Source of the DNA: an uncultured Planctomycetota bacterium
Lineage (GTDB): Bacteria > Planctomycetota > Planctomycetia > Isosphaerales > Isosphaeraceae
Direction: 5' to 3'
Assembly (NCBI GenBank): GCA_963823665.1
Contig: CAWGMQ010000008.1
Coordinates: 352,001-416,000, forward strand
DNA: 64,000 bases
Position numbers and translations under genes: made by a program. The stretch's first letter is position 1, and each line of letters starts with the position of its first letter. The notes under the pieces are model-generated. The model saw only the letters and a list, made by a program, of their open reading frames with translations. It was not told the origin of the DNA and made no database searches. Shown here piece after piece: positions 4,229-39,954 of the stretch.

Positions 4229-4469
4229 ACCGTTTCTTCCCCCGCCAGAAGGAATAGCTCGGCCGACCTGGCCGACCAGCACGAAAGGGGGATGCCGATT
4301 CGGAACGCTCGCACTGTTCGATCGCCGACCCGCATCCCGACTTTGGACTGGCAAATTGCCAGATCGCTGTCGCCAATAGTAGTCGAATGGCCGACGACGA
4401 GCAACGAACCGGACGCATCAGTGACGCGGCGTGGATAATGCGTCGTGCCCACCGTACACTTGTCAAAGG

Positions 4470-4565
4470 GACCCGAACCTGACCGGCGTCATCGAGGCAT
4501 GGGATCGACTGCCCGAGGCCGTCCGGGCGGGAATCGTGGCGATGGTGAAATCCGCGTCGAATTGA
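4470..4565 (+). other. Start-less conserved peptide segment DPNLTGVIEAWDRLPEAVRAGIVAMVKSASN* (copy 1)
   Basis: Homologous to 8020-8115, with mostly synonymous differences and a stop at the same codon position. Confidence 0.7.
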
Positions 4566-4673
4566 GTCGGTGGATCGAAATGGTGACCGGATCTACCAGC
4601 CCTACAATCGCGTCGGGACGGAAGATATACTGATCCCATTGAACGAAGCAGTAGCCGATATCGAAATGCGAGC

Positions 4674-5330
4674 ATGACCGACCCTGCCAAGCCCGTCTCA
4701 CGCTCCTGGCGAAGATTCCTGCGCTTCAGCGTGCGGGGGCTGATCGTTGTTGTGCTTGTGATTGGCGGCTGGGTTGGCTGGATCGTGCGGAGCGCGCAAA
4801 TTCAGCGCGAGGCCGTGGCGGCAATCGCGAACGCCGGAGGCATCGTCAGTTACGATTGGGAGTGGTATGACGGAAAGCCCAAACCGGGAAGAAAACCCTG
4901 GGCACCACAGTGGCTCGTCGATCTTATCGGGGTCAATTATTTCGGGCACATCACCGAGGTTTGGATCTTCCGCGAGAAGGTGTCGAATGAGACGAATGTT
5001 CAGATCGGGAAACTCAAGCGGTTGCAACGGTTATTCCTTCGCGGGTGTTCGATCGACGATGCGGAGCTAGCTCATTTGACGGGCCTCTCCAGGCTTGACA
5101 AGCTCAGCCTCGCCGACAACCCGGTCACCGACGCCGGGCTGGTGCATTTGAAGGCACTGACGAATCTCTCCACCCTCTGGCTCACCGAAACTCAGGTCAG
5201 CGACGCCGGGCTGGTGCATTTGAAGGCACTGACGAATCTCTCCACCCTCGGTCTCCGGGACACTCAGGTCACGGACGCCGGAGTGAAAGACCTACAGCAA
5301 GCGCTGCCGAGGTTGAAGATCATCCGCTGA
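4674..5330 (+). CDS. Membrane-anchored leucine-rich repeat protein
   Basis: RFSVRGLIVVVLV N-terminal anchor; 24-aa LRRs LxxLxLxxTxVTDAGLxHL; identical 49-bp DNA repeat at 5129-5177 and 5201-5249 (72-bp period). Confidence 0.85.
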   Translation: MTDPAKPVSRSWRRFLRFSVRGLIVVVLVIGGWVGWIVRSAQIQREAVAAIANAGGIVSYDWEWYDGKPKPGRKPWAPQWLVDLIGVNYFGHITEVWIFREKVSNETNVQIGKLKRLQRLFLRGCSIDDAELAHLTGLSRLDKLSLADNPVTDAGLVHLKALTNLSTLWLTETQVSDAGLVHLKALTNLSTLGLRDTQVTDAGVKDLQQALPRLKIIR

Positions 5331-5604
5331 CTTTCCACCTCTCCGCCCGGCGCAAAATCATCCCTGTCGCAGCGCCAGGAGGCGGGACGTCGTCGTTCAA
5401 AAGTGAATCCGTTCGCGTCAGTTGGCCGAAAGCAGGCCCCGGGTATCGAGCCCTTGCCTGCCTCGTGACTAACGATTGCATTTGCGCGAAGTGAGCCCAG
5501 AATCGGACGCAATCAGACCGGCATTGCCAATCTGACTACAGTTGTGGCTAGAATTGGTAGACTCGGGGTGATGATAAAGCCCGCGGTTCCGGGAGAGTCA
5601 GGCT

Positions 5605-5866
5605 ATGATCAGTGACAAACAACTCGAAGCGAACCGCCAGAATGCTCTTCAGTCGACGGGCCGACAACTGTGGAAGGGGTGGACGCGGTCAAGCTGAATG
5701 CCCTTCGGCATGGTCTTCGGTCGGTTCAGACCGTGGTTCCCGGAGAAGACCCGGACGCTTGGGAGGACCATCGCGCCGCTGTGGTTGCAGACGTGAAACC
5801 GGTCGGCGCGCTCGAGCTGGCCCTGGCCGAACAAATTGCGGTCAAGCTTTGGCGACTTGGGCGTGA
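5605..5866 (+). pseudogene. Truncated, frameshifted hypothetical of the SxKQxEANRxNA..STGP..NAxxHGL family
   Basis: MISDKQLEANRQNA / STGPTTVEG / NALRHGL...LPGEDP-like..ALELALAEQIAVKLWRL; similarity ends ~70 bp before the degenerate att. Confidence 0.55.
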
Positions 5867-5938
5867 CTTGTTGTTCGAGGCGTATGCAGATGCCGACAAT
5901 TCGCCGGTCGGTTTTGCCATGTGTCACATTCTCGATCG

Positions 5939-5986
5939 CCGGGGAGGCGACTCGAAGCCTGACCTGCGGATGATGCGACCGCCGCT
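5939..5986. repeat. Degenerate att remnant (tRNA-CAT 3' half)
   Basis: ccggggaggcgactcgaa-gcctgacctgcggatgatgcgaccgccgct versus the tRNA sequence: 1 deletion and 2 substitutions. Confidence 0.85.
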
Positions 5987-6058
5987 GTTGTGTCGGCACG
6001 AACACGTGGAAGAGTCATGTGTGATCGGAAATTAAGAGGTTTCCCGGTCGTTGGCCAA

Positions 6059-7222
6059 TCAGGAATCCTCGATCACCCGGAAATTACGCGGTTCGGTCAG
6101 CTCGTACTCCCGCACCTTGACCTCATTGCGAATAATTCCAGTTACGGCGACTCGTTTCCGGTCAGGGAGCGCATCGCAGGCCTGTCTGAATTCCTCGGCG
6201 GCGAGATCGACCTTGACCTTGGCAGGCCGGCCTGCAACTACAGAAGCGATGATGATTCTACCAACCAGGTCCGGCGTGAAGGGACGATGGACGAATTCCG
6301 TCCGGAGCAGTTCACCCTTGTATTCCTCGGGCTTTGCAAACGCCCGGCGGCGGAGTCCCCTGGCCGCCTCCTCGATGAATGAGAATGACTCTTGGGGGAA
6401 GGAGACAGACTGTGGCACTCGCTCAGGGACATGATGTCGGGTCCGAGCCCAACTGACGGAGATCTCGAGCCTCGACTGGTCACCGGAGGGTTCTCATCAC
6501 TCGCAGGGCATCGCAGAGATTCGCGCTGACGCCACGTTCGATTCCGTCGAGGATTTGACCGGGGTTGCCTGTGCGGATCGCATCAGAGACAAAGCCAAGA
6601 GTCGACATCAAGCGACTCGTGACCCGACGCGAATAGGGCTCCTGACTCAATCGCAAATCCTCATCAACGAAATCCATCAGCGTCTGAATCTCAGGCGGCA
6701 CGGGAGCGATGATGGTCGCTACGAAACTTCCTCGTTCTGTCTGACCCAAACGACAAGTCTTCAAGAATCTACTGACTTCCCTATTTACCTTCAGAGGATG
6801 AAGTGGTTGAGGGTGTACCGCGCTGCAAGCGGCCGCCAGAAGCAGGTCCCGGCCGCCGCGCAGCAATTCGATGCCCTCATCGAGCGGCAGGTTTCCCAGC
6901 GTGGCGTCAGCGGCTTCGACGCGAAATCGGAACACGTCGCCTGACGGTACCGAGAGATCTTTGAGAATCTCCCACGGGGAGCGGTCCTCGATCGTGGCAA
7001 GAGCGACAACGACGTCGGCCATGCGGAGAACGAAGTCCCTCATCTCACGCTTGAGCGGGAGCAACAGCTCCACCGCTTTGTGCGAGGTATGCCGGAATTC
7101 CAGGGCGTTGCTTGAGCGACCGTTTGGCGTAGAAACCCAGCCATGGGTCGTCAGGTAGAGTCGGACGTCCCCGGGCGCAACGCTTCGATCTGATCTCTCG
7201 GCAATTTCAAGGGGGACTTCAT
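6059..7222 (-). CDS. Hypothetical protein coupled to the DUF4365 gene (broken by indels/stop)
   Basis: ATG 7222 overlaps the upstream stop. MKSPLKLPRDQIEALRPG joins DVRLYLTTHGW after a 1-nt shift in a G-run, then continues in ORFs 6480-7073 (LGQTERGSFV) and 6059-6418. Confidence 0.6.
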
Positions 7223-7503
7223 ATCGGTTCCTTACGGGCGGTCTGTTTCATCAGATCATCGTAATTCTTTCGCTTCAAGTGGTAAACGAGGTGCTCGCCC
7301 CGCATGACTCTGGCGCTGGTGCACTTCACCTGAAGTTCGATCCGCGGTGGTCGGGGGATTTCTTCGCCGACACGCCCGGCGATCCAGAGGTCGATGCTGT
7401 CGTCATCGACTGGGGGTTCAGCGACCATATTCCCTGCGAGGGTCGCAACAGCTCGAACATAAGCGAAACTGAATTGCTCCTTTCGTTGGCTGTTATCCAT
7501 CAT
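7219..7503 (-). pseudogene. DUF4365-like (PD-(D/E)xK-type) protein, apparently internally deleted
   Basis: KEQFSFAYVRAVA..DDDSIDL..RIELQVKCT..KNYDDL, then only 10 more residues; 94 aa, shorter than usual for this family. Confidence 0.6.
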
Positions 7504-7885
7504 GCCGCAGCCTCGATCAGGCACTCGCTTCCTGCCGTGTTGGTGCTCACGACGGCGCCGGCTATGCGGTGTGGTGCTCTACGGCGCGATCGCCAACTTC
7601 GCGGGACCACAGTCTAACGATCATGAGCGGTTCGGCAACCCCCGACAAAGCGAGGCTTTCTTCAGCCTGGCGCGTAATTTGGCCCTGGAGGTGTAGCGAT
7701 AACGCGTGTAGTACGTTCACTGTCGATCTTGGAGTTTTCGGCGCTGCTGCCTTCCGCCGGATGGCGGAATCGCACTGGTTTCCGAGATCAGATATATCGT
7801 CCCGCAGATCCCAGCGTCGCGGCAAGTACGCAGCCGGCTCGTGGGTTTCGTTCGGGATTCGGCTTTGGCTAGCCATCCGATCGAT

Positions 7886-7937
7886 TACCGGGGAGGCGAC
7901 TCGAACGCCTGACCTGCGGATTATGAGACCGCCGCTC
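7886..7937. repeat. Distal att site: 52-bp perfect direct repeat of the tRNA 3' portion
   Basis: taccggggaggcgactcgaacgcctgacctgcggattatgagaccgccgctc is identical to 22005-22056. Confidence 0.97.
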
Positions 7938-8019
7938 GCGAACCGCAAAGATATCAAATCAAACGACTTGCGTCAACACACACCCGAGGCGACAGCGCAG
8001 GGACAGCGCGGCGTCGAAT

Positions 8020-8115
8020 GACCCCGGTTTGACCGCCGTCATCGAGGCATGGGATCGACTGCCCGAGGCCGTCCGCGCTGGCATCGTGGCGATGGTAAAG
8101 GCCGCGGCGAAGTAA
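8020..8115 (+). other. Start-less conserved peptide segment DPGLTAVIEAWDRLPEAVRAGIVAMVKAAAK* (copy 2)
   Basis: Begins 82 bp inside the distal att; homologous to 4470-4565. Confidence 0.7.
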
Positions 8116-16674: not shown

Positions 16675-16942
16675 ACACGAACGCCCCCAGCCCGAGGCCG
16701 GAGGCGCTGTGGATGATCCGCGACAAGATCATCCTACCGCGCAACCGCCCGCTGTCTCAATCCACGACAAGCTGACCTGGGGATGGGACGACGTCGCCGC
16801 CCTGACCGGACTGTCCCGTCGGTTGCTTGAGCGCCAACTCTCTGCCGGCAAGATGCCGCTGCCTGACTTAAGGATTGGCCGACGTGTTCTCTGGCGACCC
16901 GAGACTATCCGCCGATGGATTGGGGAGGGTGGCCGCCAATGA
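16661..16942 (+). CDS. AlpA/excisionase-family DNA-binding protein
   Basis: DDVAALTGLSRRLLER..GKMPLPDLRIGRRVLWRPETIRRWI; start may be GTG 16667. Confidence 0.8.
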   Translation: MPVPKHERPQPEAGGAVDDPRQDHPTAQPPAVSIHDKLTWGWDDVAALTGLSRRLLERQLSAGKMPLPDLRIGRRVLWRPETIRRWIGEGGRQ

Positions 16943-18633
16943 GCTTGCCAACCTCCTATGAAGCTTGGACGCTTGCGCGCGTCGCTTGCGGGATGCCCCT
17001 TAATGGTGAGCTGCACAAACTGTCCGAGCCGTGGCGATCGCTGGCCGAAGCGATGGCAGGCGCGCTCAAGGACAAGCGGCAATCCATTCTCGACGGATTC
17101 CTGGCCGGCCGCCCCGATCGAGACGCCATCATCAAGGCCATAGCCGACGCCGATCCTAATGGACCGCCGCCGCCCTCCGAGGCAATCCCGTCGCGCGATG
17201 CGTGGCCGCCCTTGCGCCTCGACGAGCTGCCTTCTGTTGAAGCATTTCCGGCCGACGTTCTACCGCCGATCGCTGCTCAACTTGTAATCGAGGGAGCGGA
17301 CGCGATCGGTTGCGCGCCGGATTTCCTCGGGCTCACGATGCTGGCCGTTGCAGGGGGAACAATCGGCCGATCGGTGAGCTTGCTGTTGAAGCCGAATTAC
17401 TTCGTCAGTGCGACGCTCTACTCGGGTTGCATCGGACCGCCCTCGGACGGGAAGACGCCTGCCCTTAAGGCCGCCGCCGCCCCGGTTCGTTCGATTGACG
17501 ACGAGCTGGCCGCCGAACACGCCGCCGCGATGGAACGATGGCGAGCGGACCAAATCGGCCCCGATGGCAAGGAGAAGAGAACCAAGCCCCCCGCGCCGCC
17601 GAGACCCCGGAGGATCGATATCGATGACGCCACGATGGAAGTTTTGCCTCTTATCCTGGCGGACAACCCGCGGGGACTGATCATGATTCGGGATGAGCTG
17701 AGCGCATTCGTCCTCGGGATGAATCAGTTCAAGGGAGGAAAGGGCAATGATCGATCCAACGCGCTCAAGATCTGGTCAGGCGACCGAATTATCAAGGATC
17801 GCGTGAACCACGAAGGCGGAACGCCGATCCGTTGCACGCATCCTGCGCTCAGTATCGTCGGTGGGTTGACGCCGGACCTGCTCGGGGAACTGACCGACCC
17901 GAAGGGAAGCGCCGACGGGTTCATCGACCGGTTCTTGCTGGCATATCCTGACCCCCGGCCCGTGCCCGATTGGTCGGATCGCGGGATTCCCGAGGTTCTC
18001 CTCGACGACTGGCGATCTCTGGTCGCCCGTTTGTGGATGAGACCCCTCGACGTCAAGGAAGGCAAGGAAGTCCCCCATGTCATGCGATTCACGCCCGAGG
18101 GAAAGGCCCGCTGGCAAAAACGCTATGACGAGCATTCCGCGGAGATGAACGCAACAGATTTCCCGCCGTTCCTACGTGGACCCTGGGGTAAATTTCGCGA
18201 GTACGCTGGTCGCCTGACCCTCATTGTGACTCTGACGCATCACGCTGCGGACCCGACCGCGGACGCCTTGGCCCTGCCCGATGTTGGTCCGCGACAGGTT
18301 GACGCTGCGTGGCGATTGGTCAGTTACTTCAAGAGCCACGCAAGGCGAATCCGCGCTGTCATCGCGTCCGGACCCGGAACCGGTGAAACTCGCGCTGCGA
18401 AAGCCATCGTGGATTGGGTGCGATCCAGAGACCTATCAAGCTTCACCGAGAAAGACATCAAACAGGCGCGACGATGGATCAATCACAGCGACCTGCTCGA
18501 CGCCCTCGACTATCTAATCGACCGGGGTGCAATTCGGCCCCGTCAAGCACCGACGCCAACCGCCAAGGGTGGCCGGCCGCCGTCTCCAGCCTACGACGTT
18601 AATCCTGAGTTGCTGGCTACTGCAAACCCTTAG
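16939..18633 (+). CDS. DUF3987/YfjI-family P-loop replication protein (helicase-like)
   Basis: FPADVLP, Walker A GPPSDGKT, RDELS, DGFIDRFL, C-terminal winged helix ..GGRP. Confidence 0.85.
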   Translation: MSLPTSYEAWTLARVACGMPLNGELHKLSEPWRSLAEAMAGALKDKRQSILDGFLAGRPDRDAIIKAIADADPNGPPPPSEAIPSRDAWPPLRLDELPSVEAFPADVLPPIAAQLVIEGADAIGCAPDFLGLTMLAVAGGTIGRSVSLLLKPNYFVSATLYSGCIGPPSDGKTPALKAAAAPVRSIDDELAAEHAAAMERWRADQIGPDGKEKRTKPPAPPRPRRIDIDDATMEVLPLILADNPRGLIMIRDELSAFVLGMNQFKGGKGNDRSNALKIWSGDRIIKDRVNHEGGTPIRCTHPALSIVGGLTPDLLGELTDPKGSADGFIDRFLLAYPDPRPVPDWSDRGIPEVLLDDWRSLVARLWMRPLDVKEGKEVPHVMRFTPEGKARWQKRYDEHSAEMNATDFPPFLRGPWGKFREYAGRLTLIVTLTHHAADPTADALALPDVGPRQVDAAWRLVSYFKSHARRIRAVIASGPGTGETRAAKAIVDWVRSRDLSSFTEKDIKQARRWINHSDLLDALDYLIDRGAIRPRQAPTPTAKGGRPPSPAYDVNPELLATANP

Positions 18634-18695
18634 AACCCTAGAAACCGACGCCCCAAGCGGTTGCCCGCGACCGGTTCTTAGGGTTCTTAGGGTTT
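18624..18695. repeat. Inverted arrays of 9-bp iterons (AACCCTAAG-like); candidate replication origin
   Basis: aaacccttagaaccctagaaacc (18624-18646) and ggttcttagggttcttagggttt (18673-18695): 20/23 complementary, 26-bp spacer. Confidence 0.7.
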
Positions 18696-18757
18696 CTAGC
18701 AACAAGTATCGGGTGCATGCGATGGGAATGGGCGCGTCTGTCGAGAACCCCTGGATC

Positions 18758-20206
18758 ATGGTTGCTGGAAGTGATCGGATCGACTGGGCGGATGTCCGCG
18801 ACCGGGTTAACCTGGCCGCCATCGCGACCGCCTTGCTTGGCCCCGCCGCCGGCCGCCGCGGGGAGGGTGGCCGCCGCCTCTGGTGGCCCTGCCCGTTCCA
18901 TGCTGACCGGAATCCGTCTTTCGCCGTCGAGCCTGGCAAGCCCTGGTGGCGATGCTACGGGTGCGGAGAGCACGGGGATGCCCCCGCGCTGGTGATGAAG
19001 GTTCAGGCAGTTACTTTCCCCGAGGCCGTTCGCTGGCTTGCCGAGCAATCCGGAATCGCGACGTCATCGAGCCGCCCCTGGCGCCCCTCGGGGAGAGAGC
19101 CGATCCGCCGGAGGCCCCCGGACGCTGGCCCCCTCAAAGCCCCTGAGAGGCCCGCCAAGCAGCCCTCGGGATTGCCCCTGGCCGATGCGTTGAAGCTAGT
19201 CGAAGATGCCGCCGAACGAATCTGGAGGCCCGAGGGACTGGTGGCCCTGGAATATCTCCGACGCCGTGGACTGACCGATGAGACAATACGTCAGGCCCGC
19301 CTCGGGTGGGCGCCCGATGTTTCCATTCCGGTGAAGGATGGAATCCGATACTGGCGAGTCTCTGGCATCGTCATTCCCTGGGTGGACCGTGGCCGCCTGG
19401 CGATGGTGAAGATCCGCCGACGCACGGGACAAGAGCCGAAGTATGCGGAAGCGTTTCGCGACCGCCCTTCGATCTTTCCGACCCCCGAGGCCGTTCGCCC
19501 TGGGAAGCCGCTGGTGATCGTGGAAGGGGAGTTTGACGCCCTCTTACTGGGTCAGGCCCTCGGGGAGCTGGCCGCCGTTGTGACCCTCGGTTCGGCATCG
19601 GCCCGCCCCGAGGGATCGACCTATCTGGCGATGCTTCCCGCCCCTGTCTGGTATCTGGCGACCGACGCCGACCCCGCTGGGGACACGGCCGCCGAAGGGT
19701 GGCCGGCCCGAGCGGTTCGCGTCGAGCCCCCCTCGGGGAAGGATTGGACCGAGGCCGCCCAAGCCGGGGTGGACCTGCGCCAATGGTGGACCGACCGCCT
19801 CGGGGGACTCGAGACCGCCCCGCCTGACCCGGCCCCCTGGAAGGTGTCGTCCTCGGGGGACGTCGAGCGAGACACGCAATCGCCCTCGGGGTCCGAGGCC
19901 CCCGCCGCCTCGACGCCCTGGCCGCCCCGCCCCGATGAGCTGGCAAGCTGGCCCCTTGAGTGGCGCGAACGCTGGGGAGCGCTGGCGAACGACCTGGAAG
20001 CCCGAGGGGTGTCGTTCCCCGAATCCGAGGCCGAAGCGTTCCGACTAGTCAAACGCGAGATGGAAGCCGGCCCCGTCGAGCTGTCTCGCCCGCCCGAGGC
20101 GTCGAGCCGCGCGGCGGAGGCCCATTTCGCGCAGGCGACGCTGTTCACTAGAAGTAGTGTACAAGATTCCGGTTTACGGGGGGGGGTACACTATAATGTT
20201 CACTAA
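18758..20206 (+). CDS. CHC2 zinc-finger/TOPRIM DNA primase-like protein (start uncertain)
   Basis: CPFHADRNPSF..CYGC, YLRRRGL, IVEGEFDAL, ATDADPAG, KDWTE. Confidence 0.88.
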   Translation: MVAGSDRIDWADVRDRVNLAAIATALLGPAAGRRGEGGRRLWWPCPFHADRNPSFAVEPGKPWWRCYGCGEHGDAPALVMKVQAVTFPEAVRWLAEQSGIATSSSRPWRPSGREPIRRRPPDAGPLKAPERPAKQPSGLPLADALKLVEDAAERIWRPEGLVALEYLRRRGLTDETIRQARLGWAPDVSIPVKDGIRYWRVSGIVIPWVDRGRLAMVKIRRRTGQEPKYAEAFRDRPSIFPTPEAVRPGKPLVIVEGEFDALLLGQALGELAAVVTLGSASARPEGSTYLAMLPAPVWYLATDADPAGDTAAEGWPARAVRVEPPSGKDWTEAAQAGVDLRQWWTDRLGGLETAPPDPAPWKVSSSGDVERDTQSPSGSEAPAASTPWPPRPDELASWPLEWRERWGALANDLEARGVSFPESEAEAFRLVKREMEAGPVELSRPPEASSRAAEAHFAQATLFTRSSVQDSGLRGGVHYNVH

Positions 20207-20310: not shown

Positions 20311-20526
20311 ATGAGATACGCAAAGCTGAGTGACGAAATCAGGGAAGCGGTGAACGCCTCGGGGATGAGCCGTTACGCGATCGCCAAGGCCCTCGGGATT
20401 GCCGAATCCACGATGAGCCGATTCGCGAACGGCAAAGGCGGACTATCGATGGACATCCTCGACCGGCTGGCCGAACTGCTGGGATTACACATCGTCGTGA
20501 AGCGCACGAAGAAACATGGGAGCTGA
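20311..20526 (+). CDS. XRE-family HTH regulator
   Basis: SGMSRYAIAKALGIAESTMSRFANGKGGLSMDILDRLAELLGL. Confidence 0.9.
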   Translation: MRYAKLSDEIREAVNASGMSRYAIAKALGIAESTMSRFANGKGGLSMDILDRLAELLGLHIVVKRTKKHGS

Positions 20527-20529
20527 CCA

Positions 20530-22059
20530 ATGGCATCGTTTCGGAAGCATGGCAAGGTTTGGTATTACCGGTTCGTCGATGGGGACGGAAAGAAGCTTGA
20601 GCGGAAGGGTTGCTCCGACCGCCGGATGACTGAGGACATCGCCCGCGCCGCGGAATCCGAAGCCGCCAGTATCCGCGGTGGCTTGGCCAACCCGAAGGAA
20701 CTGGGCTATCGCGACCACGCAACCCTTTCAATCTCGGATCATACTACCGCGTGGGTGGAATCCCTCGAAGCTAAGGGCGCGACGCCCAAGCATGTCGAGC
20801 TGTTCACTCGACGCGCCCGGAGGGTTTTCGCGTTAGTCAGGGGAGCTAAGCTGGCCGAAATCGAGCCCGCGAAAAACGCAACGCGAGCGGACATCAAGAA
20901 AGCCGAGGAGAGTCTCAAGACGTGGGTAGAACCGGCGCGGCTGGCCGACCTGACCGAAGAGCGGGTTCAGAAAGCTCTGGCGACGCTGAAGGCGGAAGGA
21001 CGCTCGCATCAAACTTGTAATCATCATCGAGCCGCGGCCCGTGCATTCGCGAAATGGTGCCACGACACGCATCGGACACGCGATAACGCCCTTCGAGCGG
21101 TGAAGGGCTACAACATCAAGGAAGACCGCCGACACGACCGCCGGACGATTTCTCTCGATGAGCTACACAAGCTCATTCAGGCCGCGGACCGCGGACCCAC
21201 AGTGTTGGGAATTCCCGGCCCCGTTCGGGCACTGTGTTACCGGCTGGCCGTGGCGACCGGCTTGCGCTATGGCGAGATTAGCAGCATCACGCCCGAGTCA
21301 TTCAACTGGGATGCCCCGAGCGTCACTGTAACGGCCGCCTATACGAAGAACGGCGACCCCGCGACGCTTCCTCTTCCGGAAGACTTGGCGGACGACCTGG
21401 CCGCATTTGTAGCATCGGTTCCCGCTGGGGAGGCTATCTTCGCGTTGCCAAACGAAAAGGGCGCGGAAATGCTTCGGGTGGACCTGGAAGCCGCTGGCAT
21501 CGACTATCAAGACGCCTCGGGGTTGTTCTTCGACTTTCATTCCCTCCGATGCCAGACGGCGACTCTGGCCGACGCTGCCGGGGTTTCCCCGAGGGTTGTT
21601 CAGCGTCTCATGCGACATTCGACCCTCGAACTGACCGGCCGCTACACCCGCCCGCGAGCGGTCGACATCGAGGCCGCCGCCTCGATGCTGCCGAGCCTTA
21701 AGCCCGAGGGAAGCCGGCCCGATTCCCTGGCCGCGACCGGGACAGACGGCGGGGTTTCCCACCGACCTGCGTCCGAGGGAAGCGGAACGCCCTCGGCAAT
21801 CGCTTGCGAAATAGGCGTCGAAGACCGACGCATAAACGAAGCCCTTTCCCACCATTTTCCCAACGCAGAGCCCGGATCGGTGCGGAAACACGCGGACACT
21901 GGCGCGATGGAGGGTTTCGCCGTCGATTCGTCGAAGAAGCGCCGCACGCTAGAAAGGAAGGGGTTTGACGCACGCCGCGGCACACTGGCGGGTTCTGTCG
22001 GAAATACCGGGGAGGCGACTCGAACGCCTGACCTGCGGATTATGAGACCGCCGCTCTAA
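20530..22059 (+). CDS. Tyrosine recombinase/phage integrase
   Basis: Arm-binding N-terminus WYYRFVDGDGK; catalytic TGLR, TKNG, FHSLR, MRHS, RYT; ORF extends through the att/tRNA antisense. Confidence 0.95.
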   Translation: MASFRKHGKVWYYRFVDGDGKKLERKGCSDRRMTEDIARAAESEAASIRGGLANPKELGYRDHATLSISDHTTAWVESLEAKGATPKHVELFTRRARRVFALVRGAKLAEIEPAKNATRADIKKAEESLKTWVEPARLADLTEERVQKALATLKAEGRSHQTCNHHRAAARAFAKWCHDTHRTRDNALRAVKGYNIKEDRRHDRRTISLDELHKLIQAADRGPTVLGIPGPVRALCYRLAVATGLRYGEISSITPESFNWDAPSVTVTAAYTKNGDPATLPLPEDLADDLAAFVASVPAGEAIFALPNEKGAEMLRVDLEAAGIDYQDASGLFFDFHSLRCQTATLADAAGVSPRVVQRLMRHSTLELTGRYTRPRAVDIEAAASMLPSLKPEGSRPDSLAATGTDGGVSHRPASEGSGTPSAIACEIGVEDRRINEALSHHFPNAEPGSVRKHADTGAMEGFAVDSSKKRRTLERKGFDARRGTLAGSVGNTGEATRTPDLRIMRPPL

Positions 22060-22078
22060 CCAGCTGAGCTACCCCGGC
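22005..22078 (-). tRNA. tRNA with CAT anticodon (elongator Met or Ile2); CCA not encoded
   Basis: GCCGGGGTAGCTCAGCTGGTTAGAGCGGCGGTCTCATAATCCGCAGGTCAGGCGTTCGAGTCGCCTCCCCGGTA folds as a cloverleaf; lacks initiator hallmarks. Confidence 0.95.
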
Positions 22079-22088
22079 ATTGACTGAG

Positions 22089-27727: not shown

Positions 27728-27753
27728 GGACGGTCCGCAACGGCGGACCCTAC
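27728..27753 (-). repeat. GTAG-type REP family B (GTAGGGTCCGC-N4-GCGGACC); other copies 31654-31679, 37236-37262, degenerate 34788-34811 and 39768-39790
   Basis: Five intergenic copies; GGTCCGC/GCGGACC palindrome next to GTAG. Confidence 0.8.
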
Positions 27754-27885
27754 GACTTGGGGGGGTTGCGACAAATTGACGGGGTGCACGCGTGACTTTG
27801 ATTTCGAAATAACTCAATTGCGGGCCAGGGTTTTGTTATAATCGCGTGCATCGAGGTTCTGCTGCTTATTGATGCGGGGGCAGCC

Positions 27886-31650: not shown

Positions 31651-31694
31651 GAGGGACGGTCCGCAATAGCGGACCCTACGAACCGGGAGGCAGC

Positions 31695-32516
31695 ATGAAC
31701 CGTTCTGGGATGGGCGCGCTCGGGGTGATCCGGATGGGGCTCGGGCGAGCTGCACTCGCACTCGTGTCGTGCGCGATCTTGTTCGGCATGGTGAATGGGG
31801 CCGCGGCTCGGGGGTTTTGGCAGCAGCCGGCCACGATCGATTTTCGGCAGCCTGAGCGGCAATATGAGGGTGTGAAGCTGGTGGATGCCAAGTACGGGGA
31901 AGTGACCGTTTCGGTCGAGAAACAACTGAAAGCCGAGGCCCCTGCCGTTTCCAAGCGCGCGCTGGCGCGGCTCAAGACCATGCGGGCGAAGGCGCTCGAG
32001 GCAGCACCCAAACACGCGCGAGAGCGGCTGGCGAAGGTCCCGTATTTCCTCATGTACGGCCCGAAAGCGAGAAATGGCGGGAAGCCGAGCGGGCTTGACT
32101 ACATTCAGAAGAATGGGCCTGAGCATCATCCCGAGCTCGACCCGCGGTGGGGTGACGCCATTGTGATCTACTGTGCCAAGAATTATCTGGACATCACGGA
32201 TCTCTGGGCGCTCAAAGCACTCTTCCATGAACTTGGCCACGCCTATCAACTCGAGCAGTGGCCCGAGAAACAGCCGGACATTCTCGCGGCCTGGGAGCAC
32301 GCCCGGGACAACAATCTGTACTTGAACGTGCGTGACGTCGAAACCGGCAAGAGACTGCCCGAGGCGTATGCACTCACGAATCAGCTTGAATTCTTCGCCG
32401 AACTCTCGTGTATGTATTTTGTTCGATGCAACTACGAGCCGTCGAATCAAAAACAGCTCAAGGCTTACGATCCGGTGGGGTACGCGATGATCCGGAAGAT
32501 GTGGAAGGTCGAGTGA
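31695..32516 (+). CDS. Secreted zinc metallopeptidase (HExxH; MtfA/lethal-factor-like)
   Basis: HELGH, YALTNQLEFFAE, LKAYDP. Confidence 0.8.
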   Translation: MNRSGMGALGVIRMGLGRAALALVSCAILFGMVNGAAARGFWQQPATIDFRQPERQYEGVKLVDAKYGEVTVSVEKQLKAEAPAVSKRALARLKTMRAKALEAAPKHARERLAKVPYFLMYGPKARNGGKPSGLDYIQKNGPEHHPELDPRWGDAIVIYCAKNYLDITDLWALKALFHELGHAYQLEQWPEKQPDILAAWEHARDNNLYLNVRDVETGKRLPEAYALTNQLEFFAELSCMYFVRCNYEPSNQKQLKAYDPVGYAMIRKMWKVE

Positions 32517-34767
32517 CGGGCGATTTTGGCCCGTCGGTCAGGAATTCGGTGGGGTTCAACATCACTTCGTCGCCGCTCTCGATTCCTTGCTTGATCTCGA
32601 CGAGCTTGTCGCTGGAGAGACCAAGGCTCACCTCGCGCAGCTCGATAGCACCGCCGGGCTTCTGCACCGCCACGTGGGCTTTTTGGGTGTTGGGATCGTA
32701 ACGAAGGATCGCCTCGACGGGAACGGCTAACGCGTTTTCGCGATGAGCGAGCAGGAACTCGACGTGGGTTGCCATGCCGGGGCGAAGCTCCGGGATGGCG
32801 TTGTCGACCGTGACTTTGGTCGTGTAGAACTTGGCGCCGCCCTGGGTCAACGCCGGCGCGTCTGGCAGGGGCGCGATTTCGACGACCGTGCCATCGAACG
32901 ACTGGCTGTGAAAGCTGTCGACGCGAATCGTGGCGTGCATCCCTCGTCGAAGCTTATCGACGTGCGATTCGCGCACTTTCGCGATCACCAGCTTCGGTCC
33001 CTTTGGGTCGATCACGCTGAGGATCTTCTGCCGTTCGCGGACCTGCGCACCTTCCTCGATTTGAGGGATCGGGGGTTGGTTTGCGCGGCTGCGTGGTGGG
33101 TTTGCGTAAACGATCGTGCCGTCTCCGGGCGCGATGATCTTGCATGCGGCGATTTGCCTCTCCAGCTTCCTCTGCTTACTCTGCTCGAGCTGCCACCTGG
33201 CCTGTTTGGCGAGCTCGTCCAGCCGCTTTTGTTCGACGTCAACTGTCAGCGCCTTGATCGTCTTTTCTTTGGTGTACTTCTCAAGAAGCTCCCGCCTCGA
33301 CTTCGCCAGCTCAAGTGCGGCCTTCTCACGTTCGATGGTTTGTTCGCTTACGTCGACGCGGTCTTCAATTTCGAGCTCCGTCAGTACGTCCGAGGGCGCC
33401 GCGGCACCGTTCCTGGCTGCCGCCAGCTCGGCGAGTCGCTGGCGAGCGCGCCGGGCTCGATCGAGCCGGTGTTCGGCTTTCTGGATGGCTGATTCGGCGA
33501 GAGTCACGTCTCTCTGCACTGCGCTCAACTCGTGCTTGTAAGTGCCCTCGATAAACTCCCGCACAGCGAGCTCAGTGACCTCCCGGGCAGCGGTGGCGGT
33601 TTGATATTCGGCATTTGCGCTCGCGACCGTGATCTGGGCGTTCGTCAGTCGATCGCGAAGCGAAGCCGAGTCGAGCTCACAGATCGTCTCTCCCTTCTTG
33701 ACGAACTTGCCGTCAGGAACGATCTGGATGATCGTCGTTCCTCCCTCAACGCTGCTGTAAACGTCCTGATGCCGCGCCGAGTCAAGCTGGCCCCGCTCGA
33801 CGATGGTGAGGTCGAGCTTGCCTGGCGTGACGCGAAGCGTGAGGGGGCCGTCGCCGCGGGTTGTGTGGGCGCCGTCTGCGGTGTTCGTTCGCGCCGCGGG
33901 GGCCTGCCTTTGTGCGTAGATGCCGGCGCCCGAGACGGTCGCTCCTAACACGAATAGAACGGAGCCGGTCTTCAACCATCGGGCGAGTGACATGGCTTTC
34001 GTAACCTCCTGCGCGAGCGAGAGAGTCGACGCTTTGACGGCGGTCTGGCAGGTGACAAATTGAACGATTGAGCGGGTGGTGGATTCGACCAGGGCAGGCG
34101 GGACAACCGGATTGGCAGCGGTGAAAACGGAGCCGCTGCCGAGCAACGCAACGTTCGGTGTGACACCTTGCCGTCGAAGCCGATCGCGGAGTTTTTCGCG
34201 GCCCCGCGCCTGTCGGCTTTTCACGGTGCCGACCGGCCAGCCCAGATGCCTTGCCGCCTGCTGGTGGCTGCATCCCTCGAGATCGCAGAGAATAACGGGC
34301 GTCCGATAACGCTCGGGGAGCCTTTCGATCTCTTGGTGGAGCAAATTGTCGAGATCGGCGGTTTTCACGGTGTGTGCCTCCGGCCGGGTTGCGGCCACGC
34401 GCTCTTCATGCTTCCGCCGCCGGGCAGCGGCGAGTCGGGCGCACGACGCGGTGCGAAAGGCAACCTGATGGAGCCACGGGCCGAGCGAGTCGCGAACCCA
34501 CAATCCGCGCGCCTTCTGGACCAAGACCAGGAATGTGGCCTGGAACGCGTCGTCGACTTCGAGGCCACCGGAGAGCGTGCTTCGGCAGACGCGGAGAACC
34601 ATCGGCCCATGGCGCTCAACAAGCACGGCGAAGGCCAGCTCGGCTGCCTCGCTGCGGTCAGTGGCAAACCGCTCGAGGAGTTGACCGTCGGTCAGGTCGC
34701 GGACCACTCCGATGTTGAAGAGCGTTTTGAGCTCGTGGACCAGGGCCGCGCTTTGGTCGCATTCCAT
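32458..34767 (-). CDS. ECF sigma factor fused via a TM helix to an efflux membrane-fusion (HlyD/MacA-like) domain, copy 1
   Basis: TDGQLLERF..RHGPMV..DAFQATF (sigma2), LPERYR..LGWPVGTVKSR (sigma4), TM, biotinyl-like/coiled coil, IAPGDG, LRPGM, V.LGLS. Confidence 0.88.
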   Translation of the reverse strand: MECDQSAALVHELKTLFNIGVVRDLTDGQLLERFATDRSEAAELAFAVLVERHGPMVLRVCRSTLSGGLEVDDAFQATFLVLVQKARGLWVRDSLGPWLHQVAFRTASCARLAAARRRKHEERVAATRPEAHTVKTADLDNLLHQEIERLPERYRTPVILCDLEGCSHQQAARHLGWPVGTVKSRQARGREKLRDRLRRQGVTPNVALLGSGSVFTAANPVVPPALVESTTRSIVQFVTCQTAVKASTLSLAQEVTKAMSLARWLKTGSVLFVLGATVSGAGIYAQRQAPAARTNTADGAHTTRGDGPLTLRVTPGKLDLTIVERGQLDSARHQDVYSSVEGGTTIIQIVPDGKFVKKGETICELDSASLRDRLTNAQITVASANAEYQTATAAREVTELAVREFIEGTYKHELSAVQRDVTLAESAIQKAEHRLDRARRARQRLAELAAARNGAAAPSDVLTELEIEDRVDVSEQTIEREKAALELAKSRRELLEKYTKEKTIKALTVDVEQKRLDELAKQARWQLEQSKQRKLERQIAACKIIAPGDGTIVYANPPRSRANQPPIPQIEEGAQVRERQKILSVIDPKGPKLVIAKVRESHVDKLRRGMHATIRVDSFHSQSFDGTVVEIAPLPDAPALTQGGAKFYTTKVTVDNAIPELRPGMATHVEFLLAHRENALAVPVEAILRYDPNTQKAHVAVQKPGGAIELREVSLGLSSDKLVEIKQGIESGDEVMLNPTEFLTDGPKSPVTRPSTSSGSSRTPPDRKP

Positions 34768-34853
34768 TGGTGGGGATTCTCCGTCGCGGGGATGGTCGAG
34801 GCGGACCCTACGAGAGCGTGTGTCGGCGGCGGACGCGGTTGGCCCCGCCACAG

Positions 34854-34889
34854 GTAATGTACCGCGGGGCGCTCAGAGTTCCGAGATTC
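34854..34889 (-). promoter_or_regulatory. ECF-type promoter GAATCTCGGAACTC-N9-CGCGGTACATTAC; also 37305-37340 and 39829-39864
   Basis: Boxes identical in all three copies while the 9-nt spacer varies; GGAACT resembles ECF -35 elements. Confidence 0.75.
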
Positions 34890-34918
34890 TGGGGATTCGC
34901 AGTCGAATCAAAGCGGAC

Positions 34919-37214
34919 TCACGGCTTACGATCCGGTGGGGTAGGCGATGATCCGGAAGATGTGGAGGGTTGAGTGAGGGGTGATGTTGTCTTTCCGCTC
35001 AACGTGGCAGTGGGATTCAGGATCACGTCGTCGCCGCTTTTCAATCCTTGCGTGATCTCGACAACCTTCTCGCTGGAAAGGCCCACGCTCACGGCGCGGA
35101 GCTCGCTCTTGCCGCCGGCCTTTCGCACGGCTACGTGGGGCTTTCCTTCGTGATGGAGTATTGCCTGAACGGGCACAGCCATCGCGTTCTCTCGATTGGC
35201 GAGTAAGAACTCGACCTCGGTCGACATGCCGGGGCGCAGGCCGGGGATGGCGCCGTTGATGAGCACCTTGGTGGTGTAAACACTCGCGCCCGAGTCTGAG
35301 GGAAGCGAGTCCGGCAGGGGCGCAATGTCGGTGACGACGCCGTTGAATAACTGTTCGGGGAAGGCGTGAACGCGAACCTTGGCTTTCATGCCGCGCCGAA
35401 TGCCGGCGACCTGCGACTCGCTCACCTTGGTGGCAACCTGCATTCTCGATAGGTCTGGAATCGATAGGATTTTCTGCCTCTCCCGAACCTGCGCGCCTTC
35501 CTCGATATATGGGAATGGCGGGCGGTTTGTCCCGACCCGTGGCGGTTTGGCATAGACCAGCAGTCCGTCCGTGGGCGCTACGAGCGTGCACGCCGCAATT
35601 TGTCGCTCGAGGCTCTTCGCTTTGCTCTGCTCAAGCTGCCATCGCTCTTGTTTCGCGCGCTCTTCGGGACGAGCTCGCTCGACCTCAAGTGCGAGCGCTT
35701 TGAGCGTTCTGTCTCGCGTAAATTTCTCGAGGATCTCCTGTCTGGACTTTGCGCGGTCGAGCGCGGCCTTTTCGCGCAACAGGGATTGTTCGCTTTCATC
35801 GAGCCGGTCTTCGATGTCAAGCTCGGCTACGATATCCGAAGCCGCGACGACTCCGTTCTTGCCAGCCAGTAAGTCGGCGAGCCGCTGACGAGCTTTGCGG
35901 GCTCGATCGCGCCGGCGCTCGGATTGCTGGATGGCCGATTCGGCCAGGGCCACGTCCGCCTTGGCGGAATTCAGCTCTTGCGTGAATGTGCCATCGACGA
36001 ATTCCGCGACCGCACTTTCGGCGAGCTCACGGGCGACCCTGGCATTTTGAAAATCGACCTCGGCGTTCTTGATCGCGATCTGGGCGTTGACCAGTTGATC
36101 CCTTAGCGACGCTGAATCGAGCTCACAGACGACCTCGCCTTTTGTGACCCGAGTTCCTTCGGGCTTGATCATGATGATGGACGTTGTACCCTTGACGTTA
36201 CTGAACATGTCTTGATTCCTCGCCGATTCGAGCGAACCTCGCTCAACATAGGTGAGCTCGAAGGCACCCGGCTTGACCTGGAATGTGATCGGCTCGTCGC
36301 TAAGGGCGGTTTCGGTATCAGTTCGGGCCGGAGGCGGAGGCGCAGGCGCTCGACCGTGGGTAACCAGCCCGGCGCCCGAGACAGTCGCGCTGATCACGAA
36401 AAGTACGGAAGCGGCCTTCGACCATCGCGATAGCGACATGGCTTTGACAACCTCTTGCGCGAGTGAGAGAGTCGATGCTTTGACCGCGGTCTGGCATGTG
36501 ACAAATTGAACGACGCAGCGAATGGTTGATTCGACGAGCACCGCCGAGACCACGGGTTGGGGACCCATCGAGAGAGAGCCGCTGCCGAGCAAAGCAACGT
36601 TCGGCACGACGCCCTGGCGGCGGAGCCGGTCGCGGAGTTTTTCCCGTCCCCGTGCCTGCCGACTTTTGACCGTGCCGACTGGCCAGCCCAGATGCCGCGC
36701 CGCCTGCTGGTGGGTGCATCCTTCGAGATCGCAGAGCACAACGGGCGAGCGATAACGCTCGGGCAACCTTTCGATCTCGGCGTGGAGTAAACCGTCAAGA
36801 TCATCATTTTTCACAGTCTGTGCCTCCGGCCGAGTGGCCGCCAAGCGCTCTTCGTGCTTCCGCCGGCGGGCGGCGGCCAGGCGGGCGCGCGACGCGGTGC
36901 GAAAGGCAACCTGATGGAGCCATGGGCCGAGGGAGTCGCGAACCCACAGGCCGCGCGCCTTCTGGACCAGGACGAGGAACGTGGCCTGGAACGCGTCGTC
37001 GACTTCGAGCCCGCCGGAGAGTACGCTTCGGCAGACGCGGAGGACCATTGGTCCGTGGCGCTCGACGAGGATCGCAAACGCGAGCTCGGCGGCCTCGCCG
37101 CGGTCGGTGGCGAAGCGCTCCAGGAGCTGACCGTCGGTCAGGTCGCGGACGACGCCGATGTTGAAGAGTGTTTTGAGGCTCATGAGCCAGGGCCGTGCTT
37201 TGGTCGCATTCCAT
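34919..37214 (-). CDS. ECF sigma::membrane-fusion protein, copy 2 (indel ~37180)
   Basis: MECDQS start at 37214; same architecture as copy 1. Confidence 0.85.
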
Positions 37215-37369
37215 TGGTGGGGATTCTCCGCGGCGGGGATGGTCCGCAATGGCGGACCCTACGGTAGCGTGTGTCCGCGGGTGAGTCGGTTGGCCCCGCT
37301 ACAGGTAATGTACCGCGAAGCGGTGGGAGTTCCGAGATTCTGGAGATTCGCCGTCGAATCGAAACGGGC

Positions 37370-39746
37370 TCAGGCTTACGATCCGGTGAATCGCGATGAT
37401 TCGGACGATGTGGAAGGTGGAGTGACGGGCGATTTGGGCCGGTCACTCAGGAATGCGGAGGGATTCAAGATCACGTCGTCGCCGCTCACGATGCCTTGCG
37501 TGATCTCGATGAGCTTGTCGCTCGAGTGGCCGACGCTCACCTCGCGAAGCTCGACGATCGCCTCCGGGCTTTCTTACGGCTACGTGGGGCTTGCCCTCGT
37601 AACGAAGAATCGCCTGGACGGGCACCGCGAACGCGTTGTCGCGATTGGCGAGGAGGAACTCGACTTCTGCCACGATGCCCGGACGCAGGCCGGGGACTTC
37701 GTTGTCCAACAGGAGGTGGGTCGTGTAGACCTTCGAGCCTCCCTGGGTGATGGCCGCCGCGTCTGGCAAGGCAGAAACTGCATCGACCGTGCCGTTGAAC
37801 GACTGGCCCGGGAAGCCGTCGATGCGAATCCGGGCTTTCATGCCGCGCTTGATGTGATTGACCCTCGCTTCACGCACTTTGGCCGTCACCCGTTTCTGGG
37901 CGTTCGGGTCGATCACACTGAATATCTTCTGGCGTTCGCGGAGCTGCGCGCCTTCCTCGATTTGATCCGCGGGGCCCTGATTTCCGCTTGGGACGGCGAG
38001 GCCGGCTCGTTCCAACCGGTGACGTTCCTCGATTTGAGCCGCGGACCCCTGATTTCCACGGCCGCGCGGAGGAGGGGCGTAGACCACGGTGCCGTCTGCC
38101 GGCGCTTTGATACTACACGCCGCGACCTGCCGCTCGAGCTTATCCGCGTTGCTCCGCTCGATCTGCCAGGTAACGCGTTTGGCAATCTCTTCGGTGCGCT
38201 TCCGATCAACCTCGAGTGCCAGTGCCTTGAGCGTCTTGTCGCGGGTGTATTTACTCGAGGATCTCCTGTTTGGTTTTCGCCTGCTCAAGGGCTGCCTTTT
38301 CGCGAGCGATGGTTTGCTCGCTCGCGTCGATCCGGTCTTCAATGTCGAGCTTGGCCAGGATGTCCGCGGGCGCGGCTACACCCTTTCTTGAAGCCATCAA
38401 ATCGCCGAGCTGGTCGCGTGCCTGCCGCGCACGATCTCGCCGCCGCTCGGCATGCTGGAACGCTGACTCCGCCAATGCAACATCGGCTCTGGCGGAATTC
38501 AACTCGTACTTGAAAGTTCCATCAACAAACTCGGCGACGGCGCTTTCGGCGAGTTCCCGCGCGATCCTGGCGTTTTTATGCATCGACGCTCCGCGGTCTG
38601 CACAATGATCTGGGCGTTCGTCAGTCGATCGCGAAGCTCCGCCGAGTCAAGTTCACAGACCAGCTCACCCTTCTTCACGAACGCACCCTCCGGCTTGATC
38701 ATGATGATCGACGTCCCTCCTTCGATGTTGCAGAAAGCGTCGTTCGTGCGGGCCATTTCGAGCCGGGCCGGCGAGACGATCGTGAGGTCGAGCCGGCCGG
38801 GCTTGACCCGGAGCGTGAGCGGCTCGTCGGCACGGGTTGTGGCTGCTACGCTGGTTCCGGCATTGAGCCGCGCCGCGGGCGTCTGCCTCTGCGCGTAAAT
38901 GCCGGCGCCCGAGACGGTCGCTCCTAACACGAACAGGATGGAACCCGTCTTTAACCATCGTGTCATCGACATAGCCTTGAGAACCCCCTGCGCGAGTGAG
39001 AGAGTCGACGCGTTGACGGCGGTCTGGCATGTGACAAATTGAACGACCGAGCGAATGGTTGATTCGACGAGCGCCGGCGAGACAACGGGATTGGGGCCCA
39101 TCGAGAGAGAACCGCTGCCGAGCAAGGCAACGTTTGGTACGACGCCCTGACGGCGAAGACGGTCGCGGAGCTTTTCCCGCCCCCGTGCCTGGCGGCTCTT
39201 GACGGTGCCGACCGGCCAGCCAAGATGCCTTGCTGCCTGCTGGTGGCTGCATCCTTCGAGATCGCAGAGGACCACGGGTGCGCGGAAACGCTCGGGGAGC
39301 TTTTCGATCTCGGCGTGAAGGAAACAATCGGGAGCCTCATTTTTCACGGTGTGTGCCTCGGCCCGGTTGGCAGCCGCGCGCTCTTCATGCTTTCGCCGGC
39401 GGGCGGCGGCCAGGCGGGCGCGCGACGCGGCGCGAAAGGCAACCTGATGGAGCCACGGGCCTAGCGAATCCCGAACCCACAGGCCGCGTGCCTTCTGGAC
39501 GAGGACCAGGAACGTGGCCTGGAACGCATCGTCGGAATCGAATTCGCCACCCAGTACGGTTCGGCAGACTCGGAGAACCATCGGGCCGTGGCGCTCGACC
39601 AGCACGGCAAACGCCAGCTCGGCGGCCTCGCCGCGGTCAGTGGCGAAGCGCTCCAGGAGCTGGCCGTCGGTCAGTTCGCGGATCACCCCGATGTTGAAGA
39701 GCGTTTTGAGCTCGTGCACCAGGGCCGCGCTTTGGTCGCATTCCAT
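37370..39746 (-). CDS. ECF sigma::membrane-fusion protein, copy 3 (several indels)
   Basis: ORFs 38499-39746, 38251-38583 and 37443-38342 tile the same architecture; small internal duplication GNQGxAxQIEE. Confidence 0.8.
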
Positions 39747-39954
39747 GTGTGGGGATTCTCCGCGCGGGGGATGGTCGAGGCGGACCCTACGAGGGAGGCG
39801 GCGGGTGAGTCAATCGGGCCCGATACATGTAATGTACCGCGGGGTGCTCGGAGTTCCGAGATTCTCGAGAATCGGGGCGCGCGGCGGCGCAAGGCCTTCG
39901 ACCACGCTCGTGAGACCGTGGTCACGGCGTGGAGGGTCGAGACAAGGATTTTTA

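Follow-up and report, generated by a model that had tools for sequence, protein, structure and literature searches.

The stretch of DNA analyzed here (the window) comprises 64,000 nucleotides of contig CAWGMQ010000008.1 from an uncultured Planctomycetota bacterium of the Isosphaeraceae. It contains two copies of a 31-codon reading frame, here called the tail. A note made from the letters alone (the original prediction) had described it as a start-less peptide that is conserved at the protein level, sits at island ends, and is translated only as the end of an integrase on the circular form of an island. The second copy lies just inside the left end of an island integrated at a tRNA-Met gene, the only tRNA identified by ARAGORN in the window. 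The locus has the following features, where att denotes attachment site sequences.

4470..4565, plus strand: tail copy 1, an orphan remnant preceded by 15 open codons, without an att core upstream
5936..5987, plus strand: degenerate third copy of the att core, found by repeat search, with no tail after it
7886..7937, plus strand: 52-nt left att core, repeated exactly at 22005-22056; the 3' part of tRNA-Met on the opposite strand
7938..8019, plus strand: left arm of 82 nt, which is also the coding linker; the integrase frame stays open as far as the TGA at 8019-8021
7961..7972, plus strand: host-factor motif in the left arm, resembling an IHF site
7991..8009, plus strand: direct repeat with an 11-nt period, putative integrase arm-type sites
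8020..8115, plus strand: tail copy 2, starting 82 nt past the att core 7886-7937 on the same strand
20311..20526, plus strand: small XRE/HTH_3 gene directly 5' of the integrase, a candidate regulator or directionality factor
20530..22059, plus strand: tyrosine integrase, integrated form, 509 aa, with PF00589 and a weak PF02899 match
21797..21862, plus strand: right arm within the integrase coding sequence, with an IHF-like motif (21797) and an 11-nt-period repeat (21845)
22004..22079, minus strand: tRNA-Met(CAT), the integration target, containing the right att core 22005-22056

Each 96-nt tail copy consists of 31 codons and a stop codon, TGA in copy 1 and TAA in copy 2. Seven of the codon differences between them are synonymous and five are non-synonymous, and the 21 codons from 7 to 27 are identical in amino acids. 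The coordinates, the seven synonymous codons, the unchanged core and the two stops were all as originally reported. A repeat finder lists the pair (D17) as 88 nt with 89% identity, and the source genome holds four matches to the peptide. The placement at island ends was borne out for copy 2, which follows an att core, but not for copy 1, since no att-like repeat was found within 400 nt upstream of it. A look-alike near 4290 was discarded, because 190 of 500 shuffles matched the core equally well. It is plausible, as had been proposed, that copy 1 marks the end of an older island, but no att site could be detected for this orphan copy.

The island spans 14.1 kb between the exact core copies, with the integrase at the end opposite copy 2. 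The integrase matches PF00589 (E 4.6e-14) and has the R, K, H-x-x-R, H and Y motifs (residues 244-372), all of them about 120 codons 5' of the att core. Its frame reads across the core 22005-22056, and the stop is the first codon beyond it. The IHF-like motif and the 11-nt-period repeat are present in both arms. By sequence, an integrase gene of this kind spans the right arm, the att core, the left arm and the tail, and is therefore whole only on the excised circle. Integration leaves a catalytically complete integrase with a few post-core residues at one end, and a start-less tail at the other. We regard this split-gene anatomy, with a gene that is whole only at attP, as very likely.

The anatomy was assessed in elements that had an end repeat of at least 22 nt and an integrase match beside the far copy (23 of 157 distinct tail hits in long loci). 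The rebuilt attP was stop-free and in frame from integrase to tail in 17 of the 23 elements (P about 8e-5 at an expectation of one third, a value that is overstated because kin are not independent). For sense-oriented tRNAs, a 5' crossover was presumed. The distance from repeat end to tail was 90-206 nt in the in-frame elements. The rebuilt full products measured 508-577 aa for several elements, and 534-587 aa for most in a further set. Target tRNAs included those for Ala, Asn, Lys, Leu, Cys, Phe, Met, Glu and Arg, in both tRNA orientations. The G225 element is in frame too; its divergent integrase was overlooked by the integrase hidden Markov model, so it stands outside the 23. An island in G215 gave a rebuilt 530-aa frame with a hairpin-like end below tail-profile scoring, and was left out of the counts. 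Three cases (L103, L138, G215) have an integrase followed by a neighbor's tail in another frame.

Contiguous integrase-att-tail proteins also occur naturally. They account for two of 120 homologues of the window integrase, P0169 and P0222, whose frames each cross the tRNA-Met-type core that is also found in the window. Further contiguous fusions were found in L133, L162, L209 and the viral contigs L227 and L228; such fusions may be circles or tandem-array junctions. Circular permutation was sought in L227 and L228 and not seen, and both were classed as linear, so they were not accepted as free circles. Long open frames before the tails of L203, L109, L136, L199 and L135 had no Pfam match and were taken as chance. 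The original claim of a start-less integrase tail made on the circle is thus strongly supported for the family by the in-frame elements and the natural fusions, but the window copy itself is unfused as assembled.

The tail is widespread. At E<=0.001 the peptide matches 677 clusters (clustering at 50% identity), so that its repetition in the window is not due to chance. Hundreds of short "hypothetical proteins" are thereby explained as split-gene ends. Of the best 150 matches, 147 could be placed, and in 135 of these the tail lies at most 15 residues from the C-terminal end. A 30-row profile detected the tail in 55 of the 74 genomes from the order and in 66 of 301 genomes sampled across Planctomycetota, which makes the split-integrase layout common within the phylum. 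Among the best 80 of 380 named matches, nearly all are from Planctomycetota. Tails were also seen in bins labeled beta-proteobacterium (L153), Enemella (L162) and Ca. Zipacnadia (L181), reflecting either misbinning or a range outside the phylum.

No significant match to the tail was found in Pfam, NCBIfam, PHROGs or PDB sequences (nothing below E 0.025), and the nearest clusters in the Atlas are unnamed. A tblastn search of 50,697 phage and 72,556 plasmid records gave no tail match, a 31-aa query being weak for this purpose. A search for tailed proteins of 300-956 aa, with 25 candidates scored, returned only the query and was insensitive, as P0222 was missed. The literature covered, from which subscription journals were mostly absent and which excluded supplements, held no description of the tail or of the layout in Planctomycetota; island databases may list such cases. 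Some tails deviate from the common form. P0001, P0020, P0050 and P0126 have an internal duplication of the W-x-x-L-P half. P0058 (132 aa) has its tail at 81-110, behind an ordered-looking N-terminal region that is not like an att linker, and may be fused to something other than an integrase. In L102 and L135, two tails of opposite orientation lie beside inverted or paired tRNA-derived repeats.

Codon and upstream statistics were taken from 112 distinct tail copies. Column conservation by codon position was 0.77/0.85/0.59, third positions varying most. The ratio of non-synonymous to synonymous differences (pN/pS) was 0.31 in the peptide frame versus 1.1 and 2.7 in the other plus-strand frames (170 pairs, which are non-independent). 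The predicted conservation at the protein level therefore holds, and codon-position bias and pN/pS rule out a DNA-level element. A T-loop-like tRNA motif was present within 300 nt upstream of 81 tails, compared to 11 in the downstream control. At least 50 stop-free codons precede the tail in its own frame in 82% of cases, versus 17% and 29% in the other frames.

The linkers also contain recurrent DNA motifs. The IHF-like motif occurs at most 150 nt upstream of 48 tails, compared to 5 and 6.6 in controls, and direct repeats with a period of 11 or 12 nt are found in 78 linkers, compared to 11 after shuffling. We infer that these motifs may be host-factor and arm-type sites, the arms serving both as DNA sites and as protein.

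When the island is integrated, the tail might also, or instead, be translated separately as a small protein with a start of its own, for example poisoning the oligomers of incoming related integrases. Gene callers annotate it as a short open reading frame, and in-frame TTG, GTG or ATG codons are concentrated near -8 and -19 codons (in 18 and 14 of the 112 copies). However, these positions coincide with arm DNA motifs, and in 11 of the 32 cases where it is in frame, the IHF-like motif has TTA rather than a start codon. An in-frame ATG occurs within 40 codons upstream in 31 of the tails, with a Shine-Dalgarno-like motif for only 3 of the 31, and 81 different N-terminal lengths precede the tail in the 147 called proteins. 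With lengths so scattered and no common start or ribosome-binding site, an own start codon is not supported, in agreement with the original observation that neither copy has a convincing one; a free protein is very improbable.

AlphaFold models the tail as a hairpin with helices at 2-13 and 16-30 and a predicted local distance difference test score (pLDDT) of 96. In a full-length model of P0169, residues 411-514 are disordered and form a tether of about 105 residues that ends in the hairpin, and the body has normal arm-binding, core-binding and catalytic parts. Because the alignment used (A3) misplaced all 51 short tail rows, this model was used for domain boundaries and not for contacts. A four-copy prediction of the tail scored 0.49 compared to 0.02 for the best control, with at least 68% of contacts agreeing between runs and partner pLDDT of at least 81. 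In calibration, 20 of 30 solved pairs attained the score mark, as did 1 of 23 single chains; these counts apply only roughly to a four-copy job with a custom alignment. The best-defined predicted contacts form a two-chain bundle via positions 4, 7, 8, 11, 22, 23 and 26, all conserved and hydrophobic. The tail is thus predicted to form a tight dimer able to pair into a tetramer, and on the strength of these models it likely self-associates. The suggestion of an interaction helix gains support in the form of a predicted self-associating hairpin.

The original prediction had alternatively proposed a degron. The tail would then be a degradation tag that destabilizes the circle-made integrase, like the tags of mycobacteriophage Rep and Int. 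The tail is rich in alanine, and PMC3694055 describes a precedent in which attP recombination removes a C-terminal tag. However, none of 111 tails and none of 150 proteins ends in Ala-Ala, as the tmRNA tags of related genomes do, and 70 of the 111 tails have K or R in the last two positions. The length after the core varies, and conservation is internal (W11, L14, P15 and the hydrophobic faces of the hairpin) rather than terminal. Since the extreme C-terminus is variable, basic and never Ala-Ala, the degron idea was abandoned as improbable.

Another possibility, with the same anatomy, is that the tail binds a different partner, be it the integrase core, the HTH protein encoded upstream or a protein of the host, or that it restrains the circle-made integrase, for instance by repressing its own gene through loops between arm sites. 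The score for self-association is modest. Foldseek gave no match for the tail model. The best shape matches among 48,161 chains (Z<=4.2) are weak and reflect a common arrangement; they include regulator oligomerization domains. They are the TP901-1 CI dimerization domain (6fxa; Z 4.2, root-mean-square deviation 1.7, 30 aligned), the CFAP410 C-terminal domain (8r9t/8axo; Z 4.2, deviation 1.6, 31 aligned) and the CapH C-terminal domain (7t5w; Z 3.4, deviation 1.9, 30 aligned). Identities are 10-17%, and no homology is claimed. The TP901-1 CI domain is described as dimerizing and the CFAP410 domain as tetrameric. In Mx8, the C-terminal change is reported by a review to alter specificity (PMC6070905). 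Against a different partner stands the single tail family on integrase cores that barely align: the window and L228 integrases share the tail and are 29% identical over 133 aa (E 1e-4). Self-association fits this distribution better than core-specific contact, and another partner or a restraining role appears rather unlikely.

Comparison with known systems points to phage Mx8. The Mx8 int gene is reported to cross attP after the catalytic domain (PMC6070905, PMC4383910), and integration to swap 112 C-terminal residues for 13, giving a less active product (PMC4701971). The latter review calls att sites within the cognate integrase gene rare and takes Mx8 as its bacterial tyrosine-integrase example (PMC4701971); the Mx9 integrase is said to resemble that of Mx8. 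The 533-aa Mx8 Int has a core, a linker, an att-like stretch near residue 415 and then about 110 residues. In likeness to it, the window integrase reads through the core, as in the 23 elements, and a longer, different C-terminus is available on the circle in the same frame in 17 of 23 relatives and in the natural fusions, although not in the window copy. In contrast, the Mx8 Int C-terminus fails the tail profile (best -0.3 bits). One phage is concerned there, whereas here one conserved 30-residue module is shared by numerous islands that target nine or more tRNA types and by integrases of very divergent sequence, and planctomycete carriers are mostly islands of 2-17 kb. By sequence comparison, the tail appears unrelated to the Mx8 C-terminus and to any described family searched, while the type of switch is already known from Mx8.

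In archaeal "suicidal" integrases (SSV1/SSV2, pTN3, pT26-2), att also lies inside a gene that is whole only in the free element. There, the split is reported to detach Int(N) from Int(C), the catalytic portion, and the fragments are called inactive (PMC8371274). In the planctomycete integrases the entire catalytic part is preserved and the loss is confined to a terminal module, so this is not an SSV-type split. The switch of BPs-type mycobacteriophages is similar in that attP recombination takes off a C-terminal segment and changes the state of a protein. It differs in that attP lies in the repressor gene and a degradation tag is lost (PMC3694055), whereas here attP lies in int and the segment is a hairpin without an Ala-Ala end.

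The peptide is therefore best read, in our view, as a C-terminal module of the tyrosine integrase of tRNA-targeting Planctomycetota islands, probably acting in an Mx8-like switch by DNA rearrangement. The circle-made integrase alone would be pre-oligomerized through its tails, which would make the attP x attB complex easier to build. Once the island is integrated, the form without a tail would be weaker or dependent on a directionality factor, and the island would be stabilized. The disordered tether would be arm DNA read as protein, with the hairpin at its end. We lean slightly toward a tail that promotes integration; the direction of its effect on recombination is suggested by analogy with Mx8. 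More tentatively, a portable tetramerization module of about 30 residues, common to unalignable integrase lineages and found on islands of most Isosphaeraceae-like genomes and throughout Planctomycetota, might itself be the directionality switch, which excision would attach and integration would take away. The stretch that links the catalytic domain to the module would then combine arm and host-factor sites, a tRNA-restoring core and a flexible tether. If so, chromosome-annotated integrases would represent the truncated form, and tandem arrays would let the integrase of one island borrow the tail of its neighbor.

Several observations weigh against the proposed C-terminal module and switch. 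Of the 157 tail hits examined, no more than 23 came with both ends plus an integrase in the retrieved DNA, and 31 of the 112 tails have no T-loop-like motif upstream. The in-frame count falls to 15 of 23 if the crossover is placed at the 3' end of the repeat. Six of the 23 elements, among them the window, are out of frame; in four of them (L086, L126, L139, L179) the integrase itself is broken or partial, but in the window and L098 an intact integrase is followed by one frame shift immediately ahead of the tail. In structure prediction, small amphipathic hairpins are prone to pack together. Circle formation is deduced from sequence, and any effect of the tail on recombination is presumed. Copy 2 in the window is, as assembled, not fused to the integrase, the join being 2 nt out of frame, and the same out-of-phase spacing is found in L097, from another genome, whose att core has decayed.

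The window join was inspected further. In the rebuilt attP, the integrase frame continues through the left arm and ends at the TGA at 8019-8021, with the peptide in the +1 frame. The linker is 2 nt shorter than in the in-frame relatives P0006 and P0143, at a GC run near 8005-8013, and relatives with the same linker are in frame in 13 of 150 proteins. L002, the other close copy in the source genome, is out of phase as well, and in the window, L002 and L097 alike the integrase frame closes at a TGA overlapping the first tail codon. In the source assembly (G000), rpoB and gyrA are split between frames (C3:1630335-1640168 and C4:1914256-1916714), rpoC shows a local excursion into another frame that includes a TGA, and secA (C5) is intact. 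The frame breaks in rpoB, gyrA and rpoC make an assembly error at the window join plausible, and since indel errors are present in the assembly, arguments from reading frames in this genome call for caution. On the other hand, the short spacing of L097 means that the shift may be inherited and not an error. Six soil runs contained only 5-9% of the words, with no RNA runs listed alongside them, and none of the contig pieces listed from four runs spans 7990-8030. In a metagenome pattern scan for the join, none of the at least 120 matches listed carried the tail. We give an assembly error an even chance, while real decay or an inherited variant falls a little short of that.

In the window lineage only, the out-of-frame join might instead be real and be crossed by +1 recoding at the stop 8019-8021, yielding a tunable tailed fraction. 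The TGA shared by the window, L002 and L097 and the identical spacing in the window and L097 are in keeping with this proposal. However, any such shift yields that TGA automatically, from the N-D codons that precede the tail. The in-frame relatives with the same linker also speak against recoding, as do the position in a GC dinucleotide run and the frame breaks elsewhere in the assembly, and we see a very slim chance for it.

For the C-terminal module as a whole, the removed piece is small, conserved and foldable, so the role of swapped C-termini is directly testable. The tail can serve as a marker of island ends. For planctomycete integration vectors built from these integrases, the circle form may matter.

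The island carries a DUF3987 protein and a CHC2-zinc-finger/Toprim primase-like protein as cargo (16915-20206, plus strand), suggesting a circle that may replicate itself. No structural or conjugation genes were seen among the island open reading frames scanned. A 35-nt inverted repeat (I6, 18613-18706), whose arms contain short tandem units, lies between the two replication-like genes and is possibly an origin or terminator. The third core copy (5936-5987) points to a previous insertion at tRNA-Met. The 1.9 kb between the two att cores (5936-7886) contain a DUF4365 fragment, without integrase or tail, and look like the remnant of an earlier insertion.

Elsewhere in the window, three tandem paralogues on the minus strand (32458-39767) encode a sigma-70 protein (regions 2 and 4) fused to an HlyD-like domain. 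Their upstream sequences are repeated (D12-D14), and the coding sequence of the third is distributed across several frames. An intergenic repeat of 37 nt (D20) is present in three copies, at 27728-27764, 31654-31690 and 37237-37273.

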